From: Promethearchaeota archaeon
GTDB taxonomy: Archaea; Asgardarchaeota; Lokiarchaeia; Sigyniarchaeales; SOKP01
Length of the DNA stretch: 16,209 bases
Direction: 5' to 3'
Assembly (NCBI GenBank): GCA_008080735.1
Contig: SHMW01000005.1
Location: forward strand, 88,145-104,353
Shown: piece after piece, positions 78 through 16,209 of the stretch
Position numbering within the stretch: the stretch's first letter is position 1
Layout: each line of letters begins with the position of its first letter
Made by a program: the position numbers and the translations under genes
The notes under the pieces: generated by a model
What the model saw: the letters and a program-made list of their open reading frames with translations, nothing else
What the model was told of the DNA's origin: nothing
Databases searched by the model: none

Positions 78-1664
78 TTATCCATTAGTATTATTATAAG
101 TTGTTTGCATTCCATCTGGGAAAATACCTGTACTACTTGCTTCAGTTATACCACTAGGCTCTATAACCCAAGTTACATTTCTAGAATAATTTCTATTAAT
201 AGGATTCCACGACTCTGTGTCTTGTGAAATATAATAATATCCAGCGTTTGGTTTAACAGCATTAATAATAGAAGATACATCTGGTTTATTAAAATACTGA
301 GAAGCTAAAGAAGACGATGTTATCCCTGAAGACAAAGGATTCATTAGCAGATCTATAGACAATTGACGTTCTGGTGTGGTTTTAGTCTCCATGTACTGCA
401 CAACTGGACCAGAAACTCTACCAGGAACATTAATCAACGCTATCACATCTGTAGGAGCTGTATCAACAATTGATATTTCTTCATTTAATGCATCAGAAAT
501 AATTTGACCAAGATAAGCTAGAAAGCCCCAAGAATATCTAACTAAACCATTAGTCATATCTTTTGTAACAGTCTTAGAAACTGGGTTGCTATTAATAGTT
601 ATCCCAGAAGAGGAAAACTGTTGTGCCCTACTATAAAGTTTATTTTGAACAATTTCCCATTCACTTTCAGCATTAGACAAAGCACCGCTTGTTTCTGTTA
701 TACGATCTTCATATCCAAATATAGTTCCAGTAAGTGTAATTTGTCTTTGATTTTGATTATTAGCATCAAAAGATTCGGTTAACTCCCATTCTTCTCTAGT
801 GTTACCATTTGGATTATATACAAAATTTTCGGTTAGTCCCCATGTATAAGATTCGGGATCAACATTTTCTGATAATTGATAATTATAAAAATTATTAAGA
901 CCAGAAACTCCTATCTGATCTTCAAGATCGCCATACTGATTTAATAATATATGAAACCAATCTTGAACATCTACAGTTGTTAAATTTATTTGATCACTAT
1001 GTTCTACAATAGGAGATAAGAAATTATCAGGATTAAATAAGTCATTTGTTCCAGAGGCAGTAGTAGCAATTAGAATGCCGCTCTGAACAACATAAGCATG
1101 ATCATAACACCAGTCTCTGGCGACACGCAACGCATCGTTAGAACCTGTGTCGGAATAACGATGTTTACCCACCGCTTCTAATGTATGCGTTATGTTGTAT
1201 GTGCCATTTTGTTGTTCATTTAAAGACCAATTCTCACTAGTTCCAGCAAGTTCTGTAATAGACTCACCGCTTACAGCAAATGACTTAAGACTAACGGTAT
1301 ATTCATTTCTATTGGTCCAAGTACCAGGAGAAAATCCAACATTATCTACTTGGCAATATGCTAACAAAGGGTGTCCGCTGGTGCTTGGTGCATCAATTTT
1401 TAATAACCCACCATCGGTGAATAAATTTCGTATTCTCGTTTGTTCATTTAACACACCATTCATGTCATTTCCTGGGTATCCACTTGCACCAGTAGAATCC
1501 AAGGTTTTGCCAACATTAACAATGGTTCCAGTTAATGTAAAATTATATTCAGGATGTAAAATAATACCATCTGAACCACGAACATTTGTTTTTGACCAAC
1601 TAACAAATGGAGCAGGTATTAAATAAGATTCAGTCCCGCCGCTAGGTGTATAACTAACTGGCAT
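78..1664 (-). CDS. Distal tail / tail-tip protein (Dit- or hub-like), 528 aa, internally repeated
   Basis: Directly follows the TMP with a TAATG overlap at 1664. Acidic, beta-rich S/T/N/G composition. TLTGTI occurs twice, 267 aa apart. Confidence 0.6.
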   Translation of the reverse strand: MPVSYTPSGGTESYLIPAPFVSWSKTNVRGSDGIILHPEYNFTLTGTIVNVGKTLDSTGASGYPGNDMNGVLNEQTRIRNLFTDGGLLKIDAPSTSGHPLLAYCQVDNVGFSPGTWTNRNEYTVSLKSFAVSGESITELAGTSENWSLNEQQNGTYNITHTLEAVGKHRYSDTGSNDALRVARDWCYDHAYVVQSGILIATTASGTNDLFNPDNFLSPIVEHSDQINLTTVDVQDWFHILLNQYGDLEDQIGVSGLNNFYNYQLSENVDPESYTWGLTENFVYNPNGNTREEWELTESFDANNQNQRQITLTGTIFGYEDRITETSGALSNAESEWEIVQNKLYSRAQQFSSSGITINSNPVSKTVTKDMTNGLVRYSWGFLAYLGQIISDALNEEISIVDTAPTDVIALINVPGRVSGPVVQYMETKTTPERQLSIDLLMNPLSSGITSSSLASQYFNKPDVSSIINAVKPNAGYYYISQDTESWNPINRNYSRNVTWVIEPSGITEASSTGIFPDGMQTTYNNTNG

Positions 1665-4600
1665 TAAAATCCTCCCTGTCTAACAACTTGCTCTTGTAAC
1701 GTTAATGGCTTGGTGTTCTTTGCATCTCGATAAGCACCGTCTAAAATACGCTGCAATGCTCTGTCAGTAGCATCAGCCGGATTAAGTTGCGATTTAAGTG
1801 CTTCAATTGTTCCAAGCACAACTTGTCGATTAACAGTCTGGTTATTTTGACCATTATCTTCAACATTAACATTTACATCAACATTAGTATTAGTTGAGTT
1901 TCCAGATATATTATTAATGTTTCTAGTTAAATTATTAATACTATTTGTGTTGCTAATTAAAGAATCAGATAATATATTTATTGGTCCAATCAATCTTTCG
2001 AAAGATGGTAAGTCATTTTGACCAAAATTATCTAGAGAATCACTAAGCCTACCCAAATTGTTAGTTAGTATTCCTTGTATCTTTGCTTGTTCGCTAAGCA
2101 GACGATCAATTTGATTTCCAGTTCTGTTTACTGCATCAGACAATCCTGAAGTAGCTAAACCAGCCTGTCCACCAAAAATATTTAAACCAGCACCGCGTAA
2201 AGCTGTTGCGATATCTGCAAACGATTGTGCAGTAACCCCTTGACCAATAGGAATATTTCCAAATAATTCCCCACCCCTTTGTATTTCCTGTAATATAGAT
2301 GGGTTAATTGTCCTAAACCTATCGATAAGATTGTTCAACACACCTGGGTCCAATTGCGGCAGTTGTCCAGCAGAAGTAACACCACGTAGTGGGCCTTGTA
2401 CAAACAATTGTCTAAATCTATTGAATTCAGATTGTATGATAACTTCCGCCCGTCTTATATCACTTGTTGGTGTAGTAGATAATCTTTGACGTTGAGATAT
2501 TTCTTTCTGCAACTCTTGAGAAAGATTGTTAAATCGCTGATTAAGTTCATTAACTAAATCACCGGATTGTTGCAAAGCAATATTAAAAGCATCTTGCGAT
2601 TCCCTTAGGTTGCTTAAAGCTATAACACGATCTCTCTGAGATTCCGGAGAAGTTCCTGCTCTTGTATTGGCCAATCTACTTCGTGCTTGCAGTAAATCAA
2701 AAGCAGATCCAATTAAATCAGGTTGTCCAATAAGCCCTAATATTCTAGATCTTCCACCTTCTATTTGTCTGACGCCAGCACCAAAACCTTGTTGTCGACT
2801 AATTCTAGAACGCTCAAGTTCGATAAAAGCACTTCTAGCCGCATTAGAAGATTCTAATAAAGCCTTTTGTCTTTCATATGAAATATTAATTTCTTTTATT
2901 TGATTATTTAGATTTTCAAAACTAGCTGAAACTCTTGATCTAATTATATTTTCAGTATTAAGTCCATCAACTAGAGATCGAACAACAGATCCAACGTCTT
3001 TTGATAACAAATCAGGATTTTGTTTAAACGATTGTTGTATATTTTCTGACACGGTTTGAATTAAATTACTGGCTTCATCAGACAAACTAGACCTATTAAA
3101 TTGATCTCTTAAAGCTCTTGATATACTCAGAGAAAGTTGTTCAGCAGATTCTTGAGTTATTTGACCACCAGATATTCTATTTTGTACAGAAGATAATATA
3201 TTTGTTAATTCATTTTGTATAGCAATAAATTCGGCTATTATCCTGTCGTTACCAATACCACCAGAGAATCTACCAATAGTTCCTTGAATCTCTCTAATAT
3301 TAGTAGATCTTACAGAAGATATACTTCCAACAATTATATCTAATATTTTATCTGGTAAATCAATTGTTCCAACATTTCCGCTTAGAGAAGATATAAATTC
3401 AGATTGAATATTAAGTACAAATCTTTGTGCTTCATTTCTAAGATTTAACTGTTCAGTCTGTTGTTCAAAAGAAAATAAGAATCCTCTGAAATTTCTGTTA
3501 AAAGTTAATAAATTTTCGGCAATTGCTCTATTAGCGTCGATAATTTTATTGCGTGCTTGCTGTGATTCTACGAAAGCACGTTCTGTCAAACCGGCAATTT
3601 GTCCAAAAACTTCTTCTAATGGAACTCCAGCATTAACAACAGCTTCTATTAATTTAGATCTTATGGCTGATCTTAGCTGTATATCGTTTACACCAGGTAT
3701 AGCAGTAGTAATTTGTACAGCTTGACGCCTACTAATACCAGTCAAAGTATTAATTTGCGTACGTGTTAATTCCTCTAAATTTCCACCGGTTTCTTCAAAT
3801 ATAGTTTTAAAAATTTGTCCAAAGTCATCAAATCTATCTATATCTAAACTTCCAGCTATAGTAACCAGTTCATTTAATGATCTTTCAAGTTCTTGGCCAC
3901 TATTTAAGATACCGGCAGATACAGCACCAATAGCTGCACCAATACCTGCTCCAGCCAATGTTCCTGGGCCTGGTGCAATCGCACTACCAATAGTGCCACC
4001 AAATATAGCACCAGTAGCAGCCCCTGAGAAACTTCCGACTGAACCAGATTGTCGTCTTCTAGCAGATATAATTCGTTCAAGATCTTCTGCCCTTATACTT
4101 CTTTGGTTGAATTCCGCCCTTGGTTGTCTGGAAAATACTGTTGCAAGTTGATCAAACACAAGGCTAGACAAAAACAATCCAATTTCTGGAGATATTCTTT
4201 GTACACCTCTGGATAAACCACCTGTAAAACGGCCAATTCTACCTCCAATACCCGTTCTTTCACGACGAATACGAGCAATATTTTGAGCACGCAATATAGC
4301 ACGATCTCTAACAGATCGTTCTCTTCTTAAAGATTGTGCGGCAGCATCTTGTGCTCTTGTTAACCTTTGTATTGATTCAGAATTACGACGTAAAAATCTA
4401 GGCAATCTTCTAAGTTGTCTTTGACTTCTGGCTAACGACACGCTATTGATCAAAAAGTTTTCAGGAAATACACGGCCTCCTGATGGACGACGTTGCAAAG
4501 CAGCAGATCTTGCAGCAATATTAGCCCTAATATTTGGTTGTGCCGCTAGTGCTATTCCACGTTGTGTTCGAGCTTGTGCTAATGCTCCTGAAGCTCGCTG

Positions 4601-6613
4601 TAATTCTAATTCCGCACGAAATATACCTTGATTGCGTCGTCTTTGTCTAAATTCTCTTATCGATTGATCGAGTGTTAAACCTTGTGATCGACCTTGGGTT
4701 GCAATAGAAGCTGTTAGTCCACGTGGATTAAAAAGAATTGCTCTTTGTGCTAAACTTTCGGTACTAGTTGCCACACCAGTAGCACCTTGTCTGGTAGCTC
4801 TAATAATATTTTGTCTATTATTTTCTTGAACTGCTGCGGTGTTAGTATTAACAGCTTGTGTATTACTACGAACACTGCTAACTAAAGCTTGTTGAGATCT
4901 TGGTACGGATTCTGACACCGATCCACCTGTTCCGGGTACGCTAGTACCTCTAAAGGCACCGGGTCGATATAGTTGTAGTCCAGCGGCAAAGCTTGGTAAA
5001 TTACGTACTGTTCCCGTAAACAATTTAATGCCAGCAAATTTAAGCAATGTTGGTAGTAATGGTTGTAATGCTGAGAGTGTACCGGATACAACACTTGTTA
5101 ATGCACCAAAATCCTGTACCAGTCTAGCTATAGCAGGATCTTCTGCCAATTGCCTAAACACATCCTGAAATCTAGTAGCAATTATCTGCAACTGTTTATC
5201 TATTCTTTGAAGTCCAATAACAGCATCGCGTTGTATAGATCCCGGACCTTTTGTTAAAGATATATCCAAAGCACGTTCAAATTGTTGAAAATTCTGAATT
5301 ATCGGTACAAAAACTTTACCTTGGCGTACTCCAGATATGTTTTCAACCAAACGACCAAATTGCTCTGGATTTAAATTATTAGAAACTTCGGCAATTTCTC
5401 TGAGCCTACTAGCTATACCTTTGAGTTGGCCCTCAGCATCTCTAGTTCTACCACCTGTTAATCGGTCGGTAAATTCAACAACATCAGGACGTAAAAGTCT
5501 TAATGAAAGAGTGTTAATAGACGTAGCAATTGTTGTTGTATCTAAACGAGTCACTTGTCTAATGGCAGCAACTAAAGCGGCAAATTCTTCTAAGGAGCCT
5601 CCTGCCGCACGGAATGCAGCACCACCACGTTGAACAGCGGTAAAAAGATTGCCAGCTTCAAAGGCAAAATTTTTCGACAGTTCGTTGGCTATATCTAACA
5701 CCCTTATAGTGTCAGAACCCGTTAAGTTAAATTGGTTTAAAACTGCAATAACACCAGTCGTCGTAGATTCGATATCATCAAAAGTTGCTGCTAAATCTGA
5801 TTGTGCTAGAGCAGACACGGCATCAAGCAAATCAGATTGTTCGCTAAATTTCTCACCGGACTGAGCTAATCTGGTGGTGATTGCAAATAATTCTTCTCCA
5901 GAAGCACCAAAGTTTTGTGCTATTTCAAATGTTTGTCTAGCAATATTTCGTGCCGTTTCTGCATTACCACCAAGAACTTGCGTTAGTCTAGTAATTTCAG
6001 TATTAATGTTTTTAACAGATTCAGCAGCAATGTTAAAAGCCCTACTAACTTGAAATATAGTGGTAGCTGGAATTAAATATGCTGCCAATCTAGTTGTACT
6101 AAAACCAATGCGAGATGCGAAATTATCTACTGACTCTGATGCTTCACGATGAGCAGAAGCAAATCTACGAACAGATTGTGTAGATTGTCTTGTTGCACGA
6201 GCGGCATCTTTTTGTACACGATTAGCTTCTTTAATTGGTTCTTGCAAACTTGATGCGGCTGGGCCAACAGCACCTGCTCGTGTTCCACTAGTAAAAGCTA
6301 CTCTAACAGATATAGGCTTTCGTCTATTAAAATATGCCTGAGCCTTTTGTATAAATTCACGTGCAGACCTTTGACTATTCGCACCAAATTTAAAATTAGC
6401 AGAATCAATTTTAATCTTGCGACGACTTAATACTTTTTCAATATCTTTTACATCAATCTGAGGACGAAGCTTAACTTTCTTCAGATCTCTTTGTATTTTT
6501 GAAGTATTGATAGTAACAGATAACTGTTTAAGACTTCTCTCAACAGATTGACGCAAACCCTTTGGGTTCGCAATATTAATACCAATACGAAGTTCGCCGT
6601 CTTTTTTGGCCAT
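1664..6613 (-). CDS. Tail tape measure protein, 1649 aa, with TP901-family (PhageMin_Tail-like) core
   Basis: Very long helical A/R/Q/S/I/L-rich ORF after the tube and chaperone genes. Approx. aa 195-375 (INTEITRLTQV...LAQSG...VLNQFNL...VLDIANELSKNFA...AVQRGGAAFRAAGGSLEEFAALVAAI...IATSINTLSLRL) matches the TP901-type core pattern. It has a glycine-zipper segment and an Asn-rich C-terminus. Confidence 0.92.
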   Translation of the reverse strand: MAKKDGELRIGINIANPKGLRQSVERSLKQLSVTINTSKIQRDLKKVKLRPQIDVKDIEKVLSRRKIKIDSANFKFGANSQRSAREFIQKAQAYFNRRKPISVRVAFTSGTRAGAVGPAASSLQEPIKEANRVQKDAARATRQSTQSVRRFASAHREASESVDNFASRIGFSTTRLAAYLIPATTIFQVSRAFNIAAESVKNINTEITRLTQVLGGNAETARNIARQTFEIAQNFGASGEELFAITTRLAQSGEKFSEQSDLLDAVSALAQSDLAATFDDIESTTTGVIAVLNQFNLTGSDTIRVLDIANELSKNFAFEAGNLFTAVQRGGAAFRAAGGSLEEFAALVAAIRQVTRLDTTTIATSINTLSLRLLRPDVVEFTDRLTGGRTRDAEGQLKGIASRLREIAEVSNNLNPEQFGRLVENISGVRQGKVFVPIIQNFQQFERALDISLTKGPGSIQRDAVIGLQRIDKQLQIIATRFQDVFRQLAEDPAIARLVQDFGALTSVVSGTLSALQPLLPTLLKFAGIKLFTGTVRNLPSFAAGLQLYRPGAFRGTSVPGTGGSVSESVPRSQQALVSSVRSNTQAVNTNTAAVQENNRQNIIRATRQGATGVATSTESLAQRAILFNPRGLTASIATQGRSQGLTLDQSIREFRQRRRNQGIFRAELELQRASGALAQARTQRGIALAAQPNIRANIAARSAALQRRPSGGRVFPENFLINSVSLARSQRQLRRLPRFLRRNSESIQRLTRAQDAAAQSLRRERSVRDRAILRAQNIARIRRERTGIGGRIGRFTGGLSRGVQRISPEIGLFLSSLVFDQLATVFSRQPRAEFNQRSIRAEDLERIISARRRQSGSVGSFSGAATGAIFGGTIGSAIAPGPGTLAGAGIGAAIGAVSAGILNSGQELERSLNELVTIAGSLDIDRFDDFGQIFKTIFEETGGNLEELTRTQINTLTGISRRQAVQITTAIPGVNDIQLRSAIRSKLIEAVVNAGVPLEEVFGQIAGLTERAFVESQQARNKIIDANRAIAENLLTFNRNFRGFLFSFEQQTEQLNLRNEAQRFVLNIQSEFISSLSGNVGTIDLPDKILDIIVGSISSVRSTNIREIQGTIGRFSGGIGNDRIIAEFIAIQNELTNILSSVQNRISGGQITQESAEQLSLSISRALRDQFNRSSLSDEASNLIQTVSENIQQSFKQNPDLLSKDVGSVVRSLVDGLNTENIIRSRVSASFENLNNQIKEINISYERQKALLESSNAARSAFIELERSRISRQQGFGAGVRQIEGGRSRILGLIGQPDLIGSAFDLLQARSRLANTRAGTSPESQRDRVIALSNLRESQDAFNIALQQSGDLVNELNQRFNNLSQELQKEISQRQRLSTTPTSDIRRAEVIIQSEFNRFRQLFVQGPLRGVTSAGQLPQLDPGVLNNLIDRFRTINPSILQEIQRGGELFGNIPIGQGVTAQSFADIATALRGAGLNIFGGQAGLATSGLSDAVNRTGNQIDRLLSEQAKIQGILTNNLGRLSDSLDNFGQNDLPSFERLIGPINILSDSLISNTNSINNLTRNINNISGNSTNTNVDVNVNVEDNGQNNQTVNRQVVLGTIEALKSQLNPADATDRALQRILDGAYRDAKNTKPLTLQEQVVRQGGF

Positions 6614-7401
6614 TACTTACTTTTCTTTTTTGTTGATTTTTTAGTTTTAACACAATCTTCAGTATAAGGTTTTTCTGGTTCTATATCACCAATAATATTA
6701 GATAAAGCATTTAAAGCTTCGCTTTCGTCTAAAGGATTCCCAAATTCATCTACATGCTCACCAGTATTAGGATCGATATATCGTAGGTTGTCGTCAACAA
6801 ATTTGTATTTCTTCAGCCACTTCACTTCTGGTAATTTGTTTTCAAAATCTGGATCAAAATCAAAAATAACCCTGTCGACCATATCAGACGATTTAGCATA
6901 AATATCAGTTAATTTATCATTTTTTAAATCATCAATGGTTTCCCAATATTTTTCTCCAGTATCAGGATCAACAATACAAGTGTGTATTATATAATCTTTT
7001 CTATCACGTTCAGCAATAGATTCTATAGTAGAGTCATCGAAAGTTTGACGTTTACGCATAATCTCAACTATTTTACTACGCAGTTTGGTAACTTCAATGG
7101 TTATATTTCTACCAGATTGCTTTGAAATTCCACCCTTGCGTAGTATGTTTAGTTTTTCATTAATTGTATTTTGAATATCTGAAATTGCTTTTTCATCTTT
7201 TTCTGTCCAAATACCACTTTCTTTCAAATAATCATCAACCTGAGATCTAACTAATAGCTTTTGTTTGTTATTACGCAAGATTTCTGCAACACGACCAGCA
7301 TAGTACATATCAGCATCTGATAGCTCTTGTGCTGTTATATTTTTTACCATTAATTTAATTTCTTTATCTTGATTGTCTTTAACAGTGAATTCATTATTCA
7401 T
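6613..7401 (-). CDS. Probable tail assembly chaperone, 262 aa (paralogue of 7717..8760)
   Basis: Charged helical protein immediately upstream of the TMP (TAATG overlap at 6613). AAGGA lies 8 nt before the ATG. It shares an 82-aa ungapped block with the 347-aa protein. Confidence 0.65.
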   Translation of the reverse strand: MNNEFTVKDNQDKEIKLMVKNITAQELSDADMYYAGRVAEILRNNKQKLLVRSQVDDYLKESGIWTEKDEKAISDIQNTINEKLNILRKGGISKQSGRNITIEVTKLRSKIVEIMRKRQTFDDSTIESIAERDRKDYIIHTCIVDPDTGEKYWETIDDLKNDKLTDIYAKSSDMVDRVIFDFDPDFENKLPEVKWLKKYKFVDDNLRYIDPNTGEHVDEFGNPLDESEALNALSNIIGDIEPEKPYTEDCVKTKKSTKKKSK

Positions 7402-7406
7402 ATCTT

Positions 7407-7727
7407 TTATCCTTGATCAAATTTAAAAACTGTCTGGTATCTATTCCAAACCACAGTATGCATATCTAATTCTTTCATAGCGTTTGATCGCTTACGATGC
7501 CCATAATTAAGTATATTAGCTCTGCATTCTTGCCATCGTTTACGCATTTCGCGTTCGTTATCAGTTAATTTATCATCAGTCTTACCATGTCCCCAAATAA
7601 AACCAAAATACTGTTCAAATTCTGAAAGAGGATGGATAATTACTGTTTCGAACTTTTTATTCATAATCTTCTTTAACCGCTCTAAATACTTAGCTTTCAT
7701 CTCTTCGTTTTCGTATTTACTTGGCAT
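7407..7727 (-). CDS. Hypothetical protein, 106 aa, basic and helical, in the tail chaperone locus
   Basis: ATG overlaps the end of the upstream gene by 11 nt and the ORF fills the gap in the operon. No family recognised. Confidence 0.7.
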   Translation of the reverse strand: MPSKYENEEMKAKYLERLKKIMNKKFETVIIHPLSEFEQYFGFIWGHGKTDDKLTDNEREMRKRWQECRANILNYGHRKRSNAMKELDMHTVVWNRYQTVFKFDQG

Positions 7728-8760
7728 TTTGTCTATTAACTCCTAATCTTAGTTCTTGCTTAACATCTCCGAAGTCCAAGTCACCACAAGTGCCTTTTTC
7801 GTTAATAACATCAGACCGACGTTTTTTATAATATTCTGCGACAGAACTATTTAACTTTCTAACCTCATCTATACTTTCTTCATCACACATAATAAATTTT
7901 TCATTTGACAATACTAACTTATTTGACTTATTGCTTATAGTATTATCTTGCTGATGGTTTTGCTCCTTTTTTAATCTATTTATCTCTAATTCATACCAAG
8001 CGTCAAATTCTGTATCGTTATCAATAACAGAATCACTTGGCTTATTTGTACTATCAAAAGCAAAGTCATATATTTTAGACCAAAAGCATAAATTATACTG
8101 GAGTTCTGTCATCTCCGTAGCAGCGTAGTTAAATAATGATGTGCCTGTCTCTTTTGCAACTACCCAATATAGTCGCCACGGATCTGTCCTAGATATTAAC
8201 CGTATATCTTTTTCAGATATAGCATTATCTCTATAATAACATACAACCAAAGTATCTATAAGAGATGGTTTTAGGTCTATATTTGGTGTTAAAATATTAG
8301 TATTTTTAGATATAATGAACCGTCTTTTAGCACGATCTGCTATAGATTCGGCAGTTTGATGATCAAAAGCATGTTTTTTATTATATAAACGTTCAATTTC
8401 AACATTAATCTTAGTCAAAATGTCATTAATTGCACGCTTACGTTTTTTGTGAAATTTTAAATTTGGTAATCTGTCTTGTAATTTCTTATATTCATTTTTA
8501 AATATTTCTAATCTATTTTCGTCTTCATCTGTCCAACGACCCTGTTCTTTTAACAGATCAATCGATTCAGAAACACTAAGGATACCATTATCCCGGCATT
8601 TTCTGTAGTTATAAGTATATATATAATCAGATTCCGCTAGCAATTCAAGAGTTGGATCGGCAACAATAGCGGAAATATCTTGATGATTGTACTGAAAATC
8701 AATACGCAATTTTCCATTTGAGATTCTCCGCACTAATCGTGCTCTTTCGTTTAAATCCAC
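7717..8760 (-). CDS. Probable tail assembly chaperone, 347 aa (shared N-terminal domain plus distinct C-terminal domain)
   Basis: GTG start with AGGA 9 nt upstream. First gene after the tail tube gene, the canonical chaperone position. Charged helical composition. The N-terminal half is paralogous to 6613..7401. Confidence 0.65.
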   Translation of the reverse strand: MDLNERARLVRRISNGKLRIDFQYNHQDISAIVADPTLELLAESDYIYTYNYRKCRDNGILSVSESIDLLKEQGRWTDEDENRLEIFKNEYKKLQDRLPNLKFHKKRKRAINDILTKINVEIERLYNKKHAFDHQTAESIADRAKRRFIISKNTNILTPNIDLKPSLIDTLVVCYYRDNAISEKDIRLISRTDPWRLYWVVAKETGTSLFNYAATEMTELQYNLCFWSKIYDFAFDSTNKPSDSVIDNDTEFDAWYELEINRLKKEQNHQQDNTISNKSNKLVLSNEKFIMCDEESIDEVRKLNSSVAEYYKKRRSDVINEKGTCGDLDFGDVKQELRLGVNRQNAK

Positions 8761-8792: not shown

Positions 8793-8822
8793 GCATACCA
8801 AGTCTTTTACAACATGGTATGC
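8793..8822 (-). terminator. Intergenic stem-loop after the major tail gene (attenuator, processing or stabilising hairpin; no U-tract)
   Basis: Perfect 8-bp inverted repeat GCATACCA (8793-8800) / TGGTATGC (8815-8822). In the mRNA it extends by GUU/GAC after a U-U mismatch, leaving a GUAAAA loop. It starts 8 nt after the stop codon and is followed by AUUGCAG rather than poly-U. Confidence 0.45.
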
Positions 8823-8830
8823 TTATTCAT

Positions 8831-9841
8831 TTACAAACCAGCCGGATCAGAGTTTTGCGAAATTTCTAACGCATTTAGATTCTGGAATGAATACGATACT
8901 GTCATAACGCCACCGCCAGCATCGCCACCAGTCTGACTAATGGTTTGCAATTTATTCTTCGTCCCCAAATTAAACGTAGTACTATCTTCAAGTTTAATTA
9001 AAATTGGTTCGTCAGTAAGATTATCCACATCACTTCTGGCATTAACAAAATCACCCGGAGTGGTTCCACCCGGTGATGTGTTAATTGTACAATCAACTGC
9101 GATTGGAAAGTTTGCATAACGATAGTATGGATTCTTTCTGCCGAGTTCAAACAAATCATCACGATTAAAGTTGACAGAAATTGTTACATCTTGAACGTGG
9201 GCACTATATTCACCAGTGTTATCTGGGTTATATCCAGAACCATTAATGGTCTGCATACCCGGTATAAGTGTTGGCCAAACTGAAGCTGTGCCGCTGACGC
9301 CCATGATGACATCTTGGCGACGTTGAACACCAGACGCAGGTGAATCTGTTCCGTCAAATCCAGTAAGATTAACAAACGACGAACTACGCCAGACTTTATC
9401 ATTACCAACAAAGGTTACACTCTCTGTCGAGTTACCATCCACAGGTAATGTATAGTTAAGAGAGTTGGTGTACAAACCAGAACAATAGACTTGTGTTAAT
9501 GGTGTACCAGATGCATTAGACTGATCGTCATCGTATATATTCAACAGCATATCGGTTCTTAAATTTGACCGATTAACTAATTTGTTGCTACTAGCAGTTG
9601 GTGTAGCTAAATGCCATATAAGAGGATACCCATCTAAAACCTTTTCGATAGTTACCTCAACATCTGGCAAATTTTCAATATTTTCATAAATTTCTAATTG
9701 ACCAAGCTCAGTAACCTGCTCTAAGTTAAAAGAAGTATTTGTAGACACACTCTGTACACCATGAACTTCTGTGCCAGAGCCAGTAGAATACTCGCCTAGA
9801 GCAACTAATTGAGTGGCATAATGAACTCTATTAGCTGACAT
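8831..9841 (-). CDS. Major tail (tube) protein, 336 aa, two tandem tube-type domains
   Basis: Lies between the terminator-like gene and the chaperone/TMP genes. It has its own RBS (GGAG) and candidate promoter, and an acidic beta-rich composition. The motif VQxV.....FN.....ELG....Y....NxP is repeated at aa 29-59 and 216-246. Confidence 0.8.
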   Translation of the reverse strand: MSANRVHYATQLVALGEYSTGSGTEVHGVQSVSTNTSFNLEQVTELGQLEIYENIENLPDVEVTIEKVLDGYPLIWHLATPTASSNKLVNRSNLRTDMLLNIYDDDQSNASGTPLTQVYCSGLYTNSLNYTLPVDGNSTESVTFVGNDKVWRSSSFVNLTGFDGTDSPASGVQRRQDVIMGVSGTASVWPTLIPGMQTINGSGYNPDNTGEYSAHVQDVTISVNFNRDDLFELGRKNPYYRYANFPIAVDCTINTSPGGTTPGDFVNARSDVDNLTDEPILIKLEDSTTFNLGTKNKLQTISQTGGDAGGGVMTVSYSFQNLNALEISQNSDPAGL

Positions 9842-13149: not shown

Positions 13150-14571
13150 TTATGTTCTACCAATTAAAGTAGAGAATATATTAGAATTTCCGGACACTAA
13201 ACCCGAAATTGTAACTAATGCAGAAGTCCCGCTGGGAACTCTTTGGGCTGCCGAAGTAGTGTCATACTTATAAACATTACTTGATCCAATTTCCGTCATA
13301 GATTGGCCATCAATCAAGCTTGATCCATCGCGTTGCATAACGGTTATACTCATGCCTGAAGCTTCGGTTAGTGTTGAGTTCTGATAAAAGAAGGCTGTAT
13401 ACTCGTCCCTGGTTTGTGAATCATCAAAATTAACTTGAACATTGCAATGGTAAATATTTTCATCGTCAGAAAGATTAACTTTTCCTTCAGATGAAGAAGA
13501 ACCGGCTATATATGAATCTGGTAATTTATTTAATATAGTTGTTAAGTTACCAGAAGTTGTAACATTCTGTTCATTCAATTCTGAAAATAGACTTGCCAGA
13601 CTTTTATTACTTGATTCTAGATAAACGTCTTCTGTTGCCCCATAAACATTTAATCCATAAAAATTCGTTCCTATGGTGTAAATTCCATAATCGTAGCCTT
13701 CAATTGCCATCCCAGCAGTTCCGTTAGCAGCTCTATTGAATTGACCATAACCAAGGTTAGAAGTCATGTTATATTGACCGTAAGCTATTGCTCCGGTTGC
13801 CTGGTTTAGTTGGCCAACCTGCCCGCCAACGCTTCTAGAACCATAACCGTTTAAATGTGTGTTTTCTAGGTCTAACGCACCTTCATCGGCAATGTCACAA
13901 GAAGCTTTTAGCTGCCGTAGCGTTATAGTAACTCCCCCAGTTCCATCTAGCATATTTTTAATGTCTGCTGCAACGCCACTGCTTGAAAACACTTCGGTAA
14001 TATTCGCATCAACTACGCCAGTCAATGTTCTAGAACCAACATTCCACACGCCAGAGTTAGTAGCTCGTGAACTTATACTTGCATCAATATTACTACCATT
14101 AAAAGGTGTAGAATCTGAAAGAATGTCAGTTTGTGATAAGTCATTTAAGTCATCAAATGTTTGTTTTGTACCTGTTAAGGTTCTAGAATTAGTTTGCCAT
14201 ATGCCACTTGTACTACTATTTGTAAGTTCTGTTTCTAGATAATCTGTACCAAGTATGAATGAATCATAAATATTATCTGGTACAATTCTACCTTGCCATA
14301 TTGTTGTGTATGCACCAGAAGTTGAACCAACAATAGCATTAACTTGTAATTGTGCTAAAGAACCAATTGTAGCATTAGCTGGTATAGTTCCACTTGCATA
14401 GTAATCACCAATTCCATCATCTATTATATTAACAGTTGCAGCATCTATAGTGCCATCTAATAATAATCTACCATATGGTGTAGAATCTGCATCTGTAGCT
14501 GCACCATCCGTATCACTTACACCGAATCTAAGAACATAATTTAATGATTGTTTTGCAATGTCCAAACCCAT
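13150..14571 (-). CDS. Fibre/appendage-like virion protein, 473 aa, modular
   Basis: Acidic and S/T/G/N/D-rich. It has beta-sandwich-like N- and C-terminal regions, two SGxWxxxSRTLTG repeats and a central run of (Y)G-hydrophobic repeats. Confidence 0.55.
   Translation of the reverse strand: MGLDIAKQSLNYVLRFGVSDTDGAATDADSTPYGRLLLDGTIDAATVNIIDDGIGDYYASGTIPANATIGSLAQLQVNAIVGSTSGAYTTIWQGRIVPDNIYDSFILGTDYLETELTNSSTSGIWQTNSRTLTGTKQTFDDLNDLSQTDILSDSTPFNGSNIDASISSRATNSGVWNVGSRTLTGVVDANITEVFSSSGVAADIKNMLDGTGGVTITLRQLKASCDIADEGALDLENTHLNGYGSRSVGGQVGQLNQATGAIAYGQYNMTSNLGYGQFNRAANGTAGMAIEGYDYGIYTIGTNFYGLNVYGATEDVYLESSNKSLASLFSELNEQNVTTSGNLTTILNKLPDSYIAGSSSSEGKVNLSDDENIYHCNVQVNFDDSQTRDEYTAFFYQNSTLTEASGMSITVMQRDGSSLIDGQSMTEIGSSNVYKYDTTSAAQRVPSGTSALVTISGLVSGNSNIFSTLIGRT
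14017..14208 (-). repeat. Intragenic peptide repeat SG(I/V)WxxxSRTLTG, two copies
   Basis: SGIWQTNSRTLTG at 14170-14208 and SGVWNVGSRTLTG at 14017-14055, 51 codons apart. Confidence 0.85.
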
Positions 14572-14572
14572 T

Positions 14573-15664
14573 TTATATTTTCCTGATAAATCCAGTGTTT
14601 ATAAATGAAGCGAAACCGCCGCCACCTGTTGTGGTAGAACGTTGAACAGCACCCGCATCGGACGTAACGGAACCGTTTTTCTCGAACGGAAGTTGCTGGC
14701 CAGCGTCTATTGCCCCGGCACCACTGCCCGGTGTGAAGTCGTCGCCTGCTGCGTCATCGTATGCCGCAGTGCCCGTTGAACAATCGATCTCAGTCACGTC
14801 GGTTGATCCACCCGACGTGTTCGCATCATCGCCAGAACCGAAAACACACCGGATTGCATACCCAACTTGTCCATCTCCATCCATTCCATACTCGCCGTTG
14901 TTCGTGAACAGGCAATCAGTCGCCCAAACCGGCCCAGTTCCGACGCATAAGCCATCGGATTCATTCGAATCAAATGTACAGTTTTCAAAACAGCTATAGG
15001 AATTTGCTCGTGCACCACAGCCAGTTCCACCTGTCCCGTTGTTATAAAATACACAGTTAATGTAGCGGTTGCGTCCCTGAGCACCATCAACACCGTCATT
15101 AACATTTGAATCGAAAAAGCAATCGACACACATGGCCCTGCTTGGGTCCCTAAGACCTTTCCCCCCATTTAAGTCAAATTGGCAATGGCTGAAATTTTGA
15201 TCCGGTTCGTAATCCGCATCGAAGCCATTTCCAACGGCACCGGTAAACCTGCACCGCGACCAGCCGTTGTCGCCAGCGGATGAATCAAGATAGACGCAAC
15301 GATAAGCTAAACTGTTTCCGTCAAATACAAGGTTCGCAAAGCTAAGCCCGGTATGATTGATCGTCAATAGGTCGATGCCAAACCAGCCGCTGCTACTGGC
15401 CTGAATCGTTGCCCTCGTGCCATCGATGCCACCGGTCGAATTGCCGCCCGTAAACAACACGTCCAAGGACCCGGCGGACGTAAGAGCCGATCCAGATGCG
15501 ATAGAATGGGTGCCGTCCGCACAGATTACAACAACGTCACCGGCGGATAATACACCAGCGTTACATTCATCGAGGGCTTTCTGGATCGTTGCCCAGCCAG
15601 CGGCGAACGAGGTGCCAGCGTTGGAATCACTGCCGCCGGATTGTCGAACGTAATACGTCGCCAT
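14573..15664 (-). CDS. Right-handed parallel beta-helix (pectin-lyase-like) spike, putative polysaccharide-binding protein or depolymerase, 363 aa
   Basis: The N-terminal YYVRQSGGSDSNAGTSFAAGWATIQKA is the classic cap of beta-helix proteins. Repeated rungs: NLVFDGN, RCRFTGA, HCQFDLN, DCFFDSN, NCVFYNN, NCTFDSN, DCLFTNN, RCVFG. C-terminal DF...GAIDAG...DAGAVQ cap motif. Confidence 0.8.
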   Translation of the reverse strand: MATYYVRQSGGSDSNAGTSFAAGWATIQKALDECNAGVLSAGDVVVICADGTHSIASGSALTSAGSLDVLFTGGNSTGGIDGTRATIQASSSGWFGIDLLTINHTGLSFANLVFDGNSLAYRCVYLDSSAGDNGWSRCRFTGAVGNGFDADYEPDQNFSHCQFDLNGGKGLRDPSRAMCVDCFFDSNVNDGVDGAQGRNRYINCVFYNNGTGGTGCGARANSYSCFENCTFDSNESDGLCVGTGPVWATDCLFTNNGEYGMDGDGQVGYAIRCVFGSGDDANTSGGSTDVTEIDCSTGTAAYDDAAGDDFTPGSGAGAIDAGQQLPFEKNGSVTSDAGAVQRSTTTGGGGFASFINTGFIRKI

Positions 15665-15900
15665 CTTTTAGCTCGCACTCAAAGGCCGAACACAGGGCTT
15701 GTTGATCACGTCCGCAACGCCCGCTTGGTCAAGCTGCGTCTGATACGCCTGCAACTGCGTGACCAGATTCGCAACGTCAGCAGCGGTCAACCGCGAAATT
15801 CCCTCAGCCTCCCGGCCGTCGGCAATCGAATCATCAGCCGAACTGCCGATGGTCGTACCGATCCCGCCGTTCCAGTCAACCAGAGTCGCATCAACTTCAG
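14610..15900. other. GC-rich island (likely recently acquired module)
   Basis: Hand counts inside: 39/60 GC at 14701-14760, 26/60 at 15001-15060, 38/60 at 15781-15840. Flanks: 16/60 at 14521-14580 and 16/60 at 15901-15960. Confidence 0.85.
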
Positions 15901-15985
15901 CTTTCAAAGCTCTAAATTTCTCACTTAATGGTCTAATTTGTTCATTACAGAATTTTATTGCTTGTGTGTTTGTAATGTCTGGCAT
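15668..15985 (-). CDS. Hypothetical protein, 105 aa, helical; possible partner/adaptor of the beta-helix spike
   Basis: ATG 5 nt after the upstream stop, and stop 3 nt before the spike ATG. Two amphipathic helices flank a DGREAEG loop. Function is inferred from co-transfer with the spike gene. Confidence 0.7.
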   Translation of the reverse strand: MPDITNTQAIKFCNEQIRPLSEKFRALKAEVDATLVDWNGGIGTTIGSSADDSIADGREAEGISRLTAADVANLVTQLQAYQTQLDQAGVADVINKPCVRPLSAS

Positions 15986-15990
15986 TTTTT

Positions 15991-16209
15991 TTAATTCTCT
16001 TTTAATTTGTTTAAAGCAGATTCAAGTATGTTCTGTATAGTTGTGTTTGATTTGCCAAAATAATCAGCTAACTGTCTATGTGTATTGTTTCGCCAATATT
16101 TTCGATAAATTATTTGTTTCTCTAAGCTGGTTAGTTTTTGTAGATCAGGAATATTATTAATTGTCTGGTTGTTGCTTTTGTCTTGTAATTCGGCCAGATT
16201 GTTCAAACT
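15991..16209 (-). CDS. C-terminus of an RNA polymerase sigma-70 family (region 4 HTH) protein, truncated by window edge
   Basis: LQKLTSLEKQIIYRKYWRNNTHRQLADYFGKSNTTIQNILESALNKLK fits the sigma region-4 consensus L..L...E+.II...Y....T..EIA...G.S...V......AL.KL+. The frame stays open to the window end, so the TTG at 16206 is probably not the true start. Confidence 0.75.
   Translation of the reverse strand, partial: SLNNLAELQDKSNNQTINNIPDLQKLTSLEKQIIYRKYWRNNTHRQLADYFGKSNTTIQNILESALNKLKEN

Follow-up and report, generated by a model that had tools for sequence, protein, structure and literature searches.

Two paralogous candidate tail chaperones and a third gene between them, encoded without a conserved frameshift in a clade of uncultured long-tailed phages

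Introduction

In phage lambda, the tail chaperones G and GT form a nested pair, one product being a short form and the other the same short form plus an extension, and the frameshift behind this pair is among the most conserved recoding events in phages and is used by annotators to find chaperone genes. Annotation by frameshift would miss the cassette described here, which consists of three genes, A, S and B, located in a 16,209-nucleotide (nt) stretch of DNA (the window, taken as a whole; C5:88145-104353 of contig C5 in genome G000). Every gene in the window is read from the minus strand, and the domains, the motif and the repeat whose coordinates are given below belong to that strand as well. 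Gene A encodes 347 amino acids (aa) from a GTG start (7717..8760), gene S encodes 106 aa (7407..7727) and overlaps A by 11 nt, and gene B encodes 262 aa (6613..7401). The original prediction, made from the sequence of the window alone, regarded A and B as a G/GT pair hard-wired by gene duplication. This description is only partly apt: the two proteins are indeed paralogues with no conserved frameshift route, but they are not nested, each has a C-terminal part of its own, and no short form was found.

The idea of frameshift-free paralogous chaperones is already published, for phage 0305phi8-36 and for T4-like phages. In the Bacillus phage 0305phi8-36, two open reading frames (ORFs) sharing a paralogous domain were proposed to recapitulate lambda G/GT without a frameshift (Hardies et al., 2007; PMC2147016), and the paralogy of their products, gp143 and gp144, was reproduced in our analysis (35% over 92 aa, E 1e-13). 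The likeness to the window lies in the architecture, with two separate ORFs upstream of a very long tape-measure gene, one common homologous domain and no frameshift, but A and B have no detectable homology to gp143 and gp144 (hhalign probability <1%). Moreover, the shared domain of the 0305phi8-36 proteins is C-terminal in one and N-terminal in the other, whereas it is N-terminal in both A and B; that phage has no S-like gene between the pair, and a large virion protein separates the pair from the tape measure. The 0305phi8-36 proteins are acidic and belong to a large long-tailed phage. In the clade studied here, B is uniformly acidic (isoelectric point, pI, 4.6-5.6 in 40 relatives) and the A family has a median pI of 5.9, reaching 9.0 (6.6 for A of the window).

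As in phages of the lambda and HK97 type, A, S and B lie between a tube-like gene and the tape-measure gene, and this order holds in the 37 loci compared below. In contrast to lambda gpG/gpGT and HK97 gp13/gp14 (Xu, Hendrix and Duda 2004; PMC5009743), however, they involve no frameshift and no nested short and long pair, have no sequence similarity to those proteins, include an extra third gene and, in the case of A and B, are two to three times as large. Some T4-like phages are described as having separate short and long chaperone genes and no frameshift (Vladimirov, Gautam and Davidson 2022, Virology 566:9, cited in PMC10885494 and PMC12846349). By the description given in PMC10885494, the T4-like chaperone forms resemble A and B in being encoded as separate genes, and differ from them in that the long form contains the short one, whereas both copies in the window carry unique extensions. 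In the Microbacterium Cluster EA phages, two ORFs at the chaperone position are apparently expressed separately with no evident frameshift, but they represent the two parts of a split G/T pair and not paralogues with a common domain (PMC7302621).

What is new in the present cassette is a unique C-terminal part on each paralogue, the lack of a short form among the sequences examined, a conserved third gene between the two, and a very large family that is unrelated in sequence to those described. The gain is incremental, because the principle has been published and the function is here inferred. The cassette would be the second independent natural case, after 0305phi8-36, of a duplication standing in for frameshifting, and it lets one ask whether the frameshift matters for a fixed ratio or merely for the supply of two related proteins. 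No model in Pfam, PHROG or NCBIfam covers the shared domain, and giving it a name would supply an annotation for three genes across a large clade of long-tailed, uncultured phages.

Paralogy and architecture of A and B

A and B are true paralogues that derive from one ancient duplication. They match each other directly by BLASTP (E 1e-11, 29% identity over 137 residues), and the profile of a 15-sequence A family aligns significantly with that of a 7-sequence B family (hhalign probability 98.2%, E 3.2e-14, 136 columns). The similarity defines a shared N-terminal domain of ~140 residues, ~27% identical, and the C-terminal parts, whose difference had been noticed when the window was first read, fail to align with each other. 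That reading also reported an ungapped alignment of 82 residues with 26 identities, which our recount over A 64-145 and B 53-134 raises to 27, and a spacing of 56 codons between a tryptophan and a phenylalanine in both proteins, which is exact (W76-F132 in A, positions 8533 and 8365; W65-F121 in B, positions 7207 and 7039).

The duplication that it proposed is borne out not only by BLASTP and the profile alignment but also by phylogeny. When the shared domains of 28 complete loci are placed in a maximum-likelihood tree, all A sequences are split from all B sequences by one branch (100/99), and the same subclades recur on the A side and on the B side, so that a single duplication must be older than all sampled phages. 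The shared domain evolves faster in A than in B, with end branches of ~0.3-1.3 and 0.1-0.6, respectively.

AlphaFold2 (AF2) models of A and B (predicted local distance difference test, pLDDT, 85 and 82) have a common N-terminal layout, consisting of a beta-hairpin followed by helices that include a long helical hairpin. In A, the shared domain covers residues 1-165 (8266..8760), and is made up of a helix, the beta-hairpin and five helices, the long helical hairpin among them. The GTG start at 8760 is backed by the N-terminal helix, which aligns with that of ATG-started homologues; at least 15 full-length homologues of A are known, with 33-41% identity. The A-specific region, residues 166-347 (7720..8265), is all-helical according to the alignment and the AF2 model, with a disordered linker (residues 273-286) that precedes three terminal helices. 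It carries many invariant aromatic and charged residues (TDPWRLYW, YDFAF, FDAWY), about 20 positions being invariant. No match to this region was found in PDB or BFVD, and its sole structural neighbours in the ESM Atlas are unnamed viral clusters of 344-349 aa.

In B, the shared domain spans residues 1-150 (6952..7401; beta-hairpin plus helices) and is followed by the B-specific region, residues 151-262 (6616..6951), which comprises a small alpha/beta region, an LPE..WLKK motif, DUF3659-like G-x-x-V-D repeats and a disordered tail. Across 87 B-type tails (from proteins within P0050-P0168), G-x-x-V-D-x-x-G repeats occur in variable number, weak DUF3659 matches (E up to 1) are present in 43, and most tails carry PF(L/I)DD(D/E)GNP near the end, followed by an acidic or lysine/arginine-rich tail. 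Compared with these, the window has a degenerate copy of the motif, PYTED (6655..6669), and then a lysine-rich end. In its sequence, PF(L/I)DD(D/E)GNP looks like a short docking peptide. S is unrelated to A and B; that it might be a diverged copy of the shared domain was considered and rejected (hhalign probability <1% against both the A and the B family).

Distribution and conservation of the cassette

Viral contigs were searched with the PF(L/I)DD(D/E)GNP motif alone, which yielded 44 loci on contigs of 4-233 kb, and a hidden Markov model (HMM) scan for A, S and B then gave 37 non-identical loci with enough flank, the window included. The order A-S-B before the tape measure is kept in 37/37 loci, and S lies between A and B in every one of them; the third gene of 106 aa, which the original prediction had placed between the two paralogues, is thus part of an arrangement shared by all these related phages. 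The ORF after B is always giant (about 1600 to >3400 aa), and the sizes of A and B stay constant while the tape measure more than doubles. The tape-measure ORFs of L031, L029, L016 and L021 are 2604 and 2633 aa long (complete) and >3047 and >3463 aa long (open at the locus end), and at ~1.5 angstrom per residue such lengths imply tails of 400-500 nm or more.

Among 1.84 billion proteins, a profile of the shared domain matched 2650 cluster representatives (E up to 0.001), which fall into two size classes of ~345 aa and ~240-320 aa. A form restricted to the N-terminal domain was not found: the short matches examined came either from contig fragments or from B genes that an indel or an in-frame stop had interrupted. 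Ten short matches were checked, and then two further ones (P0060 and P0120). Two of the ten were raw-read entries without contigs and could not be checked, five cluster with full-length proteins of 263-276 aa, one stands alone on a contig of 1 kb, and P0064 is found where a poor assembly ends. In P0105, from locus L057, B is split into ORFs of 161 aa and 94 aa (L057:5001-5805) by the insertion of a single T (TAC TTGG instead of the expected TAC TGG) in a contig of 2x coverage, and this split is probably an assembly error rather than recoding. P0060 has an in-frame stop, seen at the protein level only, and P0120 comes from a 551-bp contig.

A proposed role in tail assembly

The immediate upstream neighbour of A in the window is a tail-tube-like gene of 336 aa (8831..9841). 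Its product has no Pfam match of its own, and the ESM Atlas model of the exact sequence matches clusters with PF26461 Phi812_tail_tube and PF18906 Phage_tube_2 (template modelling score, TM, ~0.83); a gene of similar size also precedes A in related loci. On the other side, the start of the tape-measure gene (1649 aa, 1664..6613; PF10145, E 3.6e-20; tape-measure PHROGs down to E 1.6e-25) overlaps the stop of B by 1 nt. With a tube-like gene upstream and the tape measure downstream, A, S and B therefore occupy the entire interval between the two. We infer a chaperone role from this position, from the uniform acidity of B as opposed to the basic tape measure, from the constant size of A and B next to a tape measure that more than doubles, and from the helical nature of the proteins, B having in addition a disordered, motif-bearing tail. 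The partners of each domain and an absence from virions are proposed in the same conditional sense.

On balance, we lean towards the view that A, S and B form a tail-assembly cassette conserved across a large clade of long-tailed, uncultured phages, in which two paralogues with coating N-terminal domains and adaptors of their own are made without a frameshift. According to this proposal, many copies of the N-terminal domain common to A and B would coat the tape measure in the manner of lambda gpG, and the C-terminal part of each paralogue would act as an adaptor. For B, the adaptor would be the small domain together with an acidic disordered tail ending in the docking motif (PFLDDDGNP in most relatives), and for A it would be the conserved helical domain. 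Such adaptors could link the coated tape measure to other parts, for example the tube subunit, the tail tip or the terminator. The three proteins would be made as separate polypeptides, their relative amounts depending on gene-specific expression and not on frameshifting, and in most relatives these amounts are perhaps also set by a hairpin that resembles a terminator and follows B, ahead of the tape-measure gene.

A number of results weigh against this assignment. A and B have no profile similarity to lambda gpG or HK97 gp13, nor to gp143 and gp144 of 0305phi8-36. Pfam, PHROG and NCBIfam gave no family match for A, S, B or the 87 B-type relatives, save for the DUF3659-like repeats in the B tails, and PDB sequence profiles gave no meaningful match for A, S or B. 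In structure, B alone has one middling fold match to the HK97 chaperone (HK97 gp13, PDB 2ob9), with a score within the chance range for helical models; the HK97 chaperone fold was unlisted in a wide structural search of B and was not found for A. With 347 and 262 aa, A and B also greatly exceed typical short-form chaperones in size, and neither of them is simply a short form. The many invariant residues in the C-terminal domain of A are more reminiscent of an enzyme or of a tightly fitted structural interface, and S has no counterpart in the lambda scheme. Finally, no cultured relatives turned up when 50,697 phage records were searched by blastn and tblastn. Providencia matches to a distant B were dismissed as repeat noise.

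A stronger version, which is possible but rather doubtful, makes A, S and B an obligatory three-subunit chaperone machine for giant tape measures, with a hetero-polymer coat of the two paralogues, two different adaptors, one of them the short terminal docking peptide (PFLDDDGNP), a small third subunit and a stoichiometry set by attenuation of transcription instead of frameshifting. If true, this machine would found a new, very large chaperone superfamily without any cultured member.

Alternatively, only B may be the tape-measure chaperone, corresponding in one gene to the long form and having its adaptor tail built in, whereas A would have been neofunctionalised for a different job in tail assembly, for example recruitment of the tip complex or terminator, or an enzymatic step. 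The slow evolution of the N-terminal domain in B compared with that in A, the acidity and the HK97 fold match that are peculiar to B, and the about 20 invariant residues in the C-terminal domain of A would all fit this division of labour. Nonetheless, A keeps the whole shared domain in 28/28 complete loci and is itself never lost, which suggests a related job, and no enzyme fold or family matched A; we consider this explanation unlikely. Somewhat less likely still is that A and/or B are virion components, for example proteins of the tail lumen or ejection proteins accompanying the tape measure, and not chaperones that are released from the particle. Their large size for chaperones, the tight linkage of the cassette to the tape measure and the large virion protein gp145 that occupies the same interval in phage 0305phi8-36 speak for such a role, but an acidic, helical protein whose disordered tail bears a short motif at its end is more in keeping with an assembly factor than with a structural protein of the tail, and the size of A and B does not follow the varying length of the tape measure.

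Separate genes without a conserved frameshift

In the proposed cassette, A, S and B would be expressed as separate genes. Across the loci, each junction occurs in all three relative frames (8/14/15 for A-S, 2/24/13 for S-B and 8/18/12 for B-tape measure), and some junctions consist of same-frame gene pairs separated by a stop. The downstream frames overlap the upstream gene by a few codons only, and hardly any locus has a tape-measure frame that is open upstream. Slippery heptamers are not conserved across loci; several loci lack one altogether in a given gene, and several have none in B at all. Heptamers that recur around codons 170 and 190 of B were examined and set aside as by-products of conserved E-N-x-F-L-K-K codons in AT-rich genomes. 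Given such free variation of the junction frames and the lack of any conserved slippery site, it is very unlikely that a frameshift fusion among A, S, B and the tape measure has been conserved.

The same picture emerges from the window, for which it had been claimed that no frameshift route joins the ORFs and that the -1 frames are closed by stops. The last stop in the -1 frame of A is indeed found at codon 342 of 347, and in S and B the -1 frame opens three codons and one codon before the stop, respectively, with no slippery heptamer there. Cryptic recoding, by +1/-1 frameshift or readthrough, could in principle still fuse neighbouring ORFs: the frame of S is +1 relative to that of A, with 8 codons of open overlap between the two, B is in the -1 frame of S and the tape measure in the -1 frame of B, and among the relatives one B is broken by an in-frame stop and another by a frame change. 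We regard this as highly improbable, given that the junction frames vary among relatives, down to same-frame pairs split by a stop, that no heptamer is conserved, and that the frame change, the single extra T of the 2x-coverage contig of L057, is located away from a slippery site.

Hairpins and gene dosage

In ~27 related loci of the main clade (within L008-L047), B and the tape-measure gene are separated by a spacer of 74-110 nt (for example L028:1646-1733 and L047:3557-3638) that contains a strong hairpin of 10-18 bp, a T-run, and AGGA or GGAG as a Shine-Dalgarno-like site before the tape-measure ATG. Folding of the B-to-tape-measure spacers gave z-scores of -3.4 to -6.0 in 12/12 cases, and the stem sequences differ between loci. 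By its sequence, this hairpin resembles an intrinsic terminator or attenuator, which would reduce transcription of the tape-measure gene relative to the tube gene, A, S and B. In the subclade of the window (L002, L004, L005 and L006), a hairpin with a T-run is found in the tube-to-A spacer instead, and B abuts or overlaps the tape-measure gene; the position of the putative attenuator thus differs between subclades. The window itself has only an 8-bp inverted repeat without a T-run, GCATACCA ... TGGTATGC (8793..8822), which lies in the 70-nt tube-to-A spacer and was read directly from the sequence, and on which the terminator scan made no call. The hairpins suggest a possible control of dosage at the level of transcription, as annotated for HK97.

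Genomic context

That A, S and B are accessory cargo unconnected with tail assembly and merely sited in the tail module is scarcely credible: they have no functional annotation, and homing endonuclease genes do insert in the same interval in relatives, but all three are present in fixed order in 37/37 loci and have diverged along with the loci, and in the window they are translationally coupled to the tape measure.

In some relatives, small genes resembling HNH and LAGLIDADG homing endonucleases have entered the tube-to-A interval (e.g. L003:5251-5874). Hairpin and T-run terminators of the bacterial type in relatives, together with Shine-Dalgarno-like sites, suggest bacterial hosts for the clade, and the contig may therefore be mis-binned. 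A scaffold join of ten Ns is present in the 85-90 kb stretch of contig C5, probably just before the window. Within the window, positions ~14500-16000 have a GC content of ~0.50, compared with 0.31-0.39 elsewhere, and span the region of a beta-helix (PF13229) gene.

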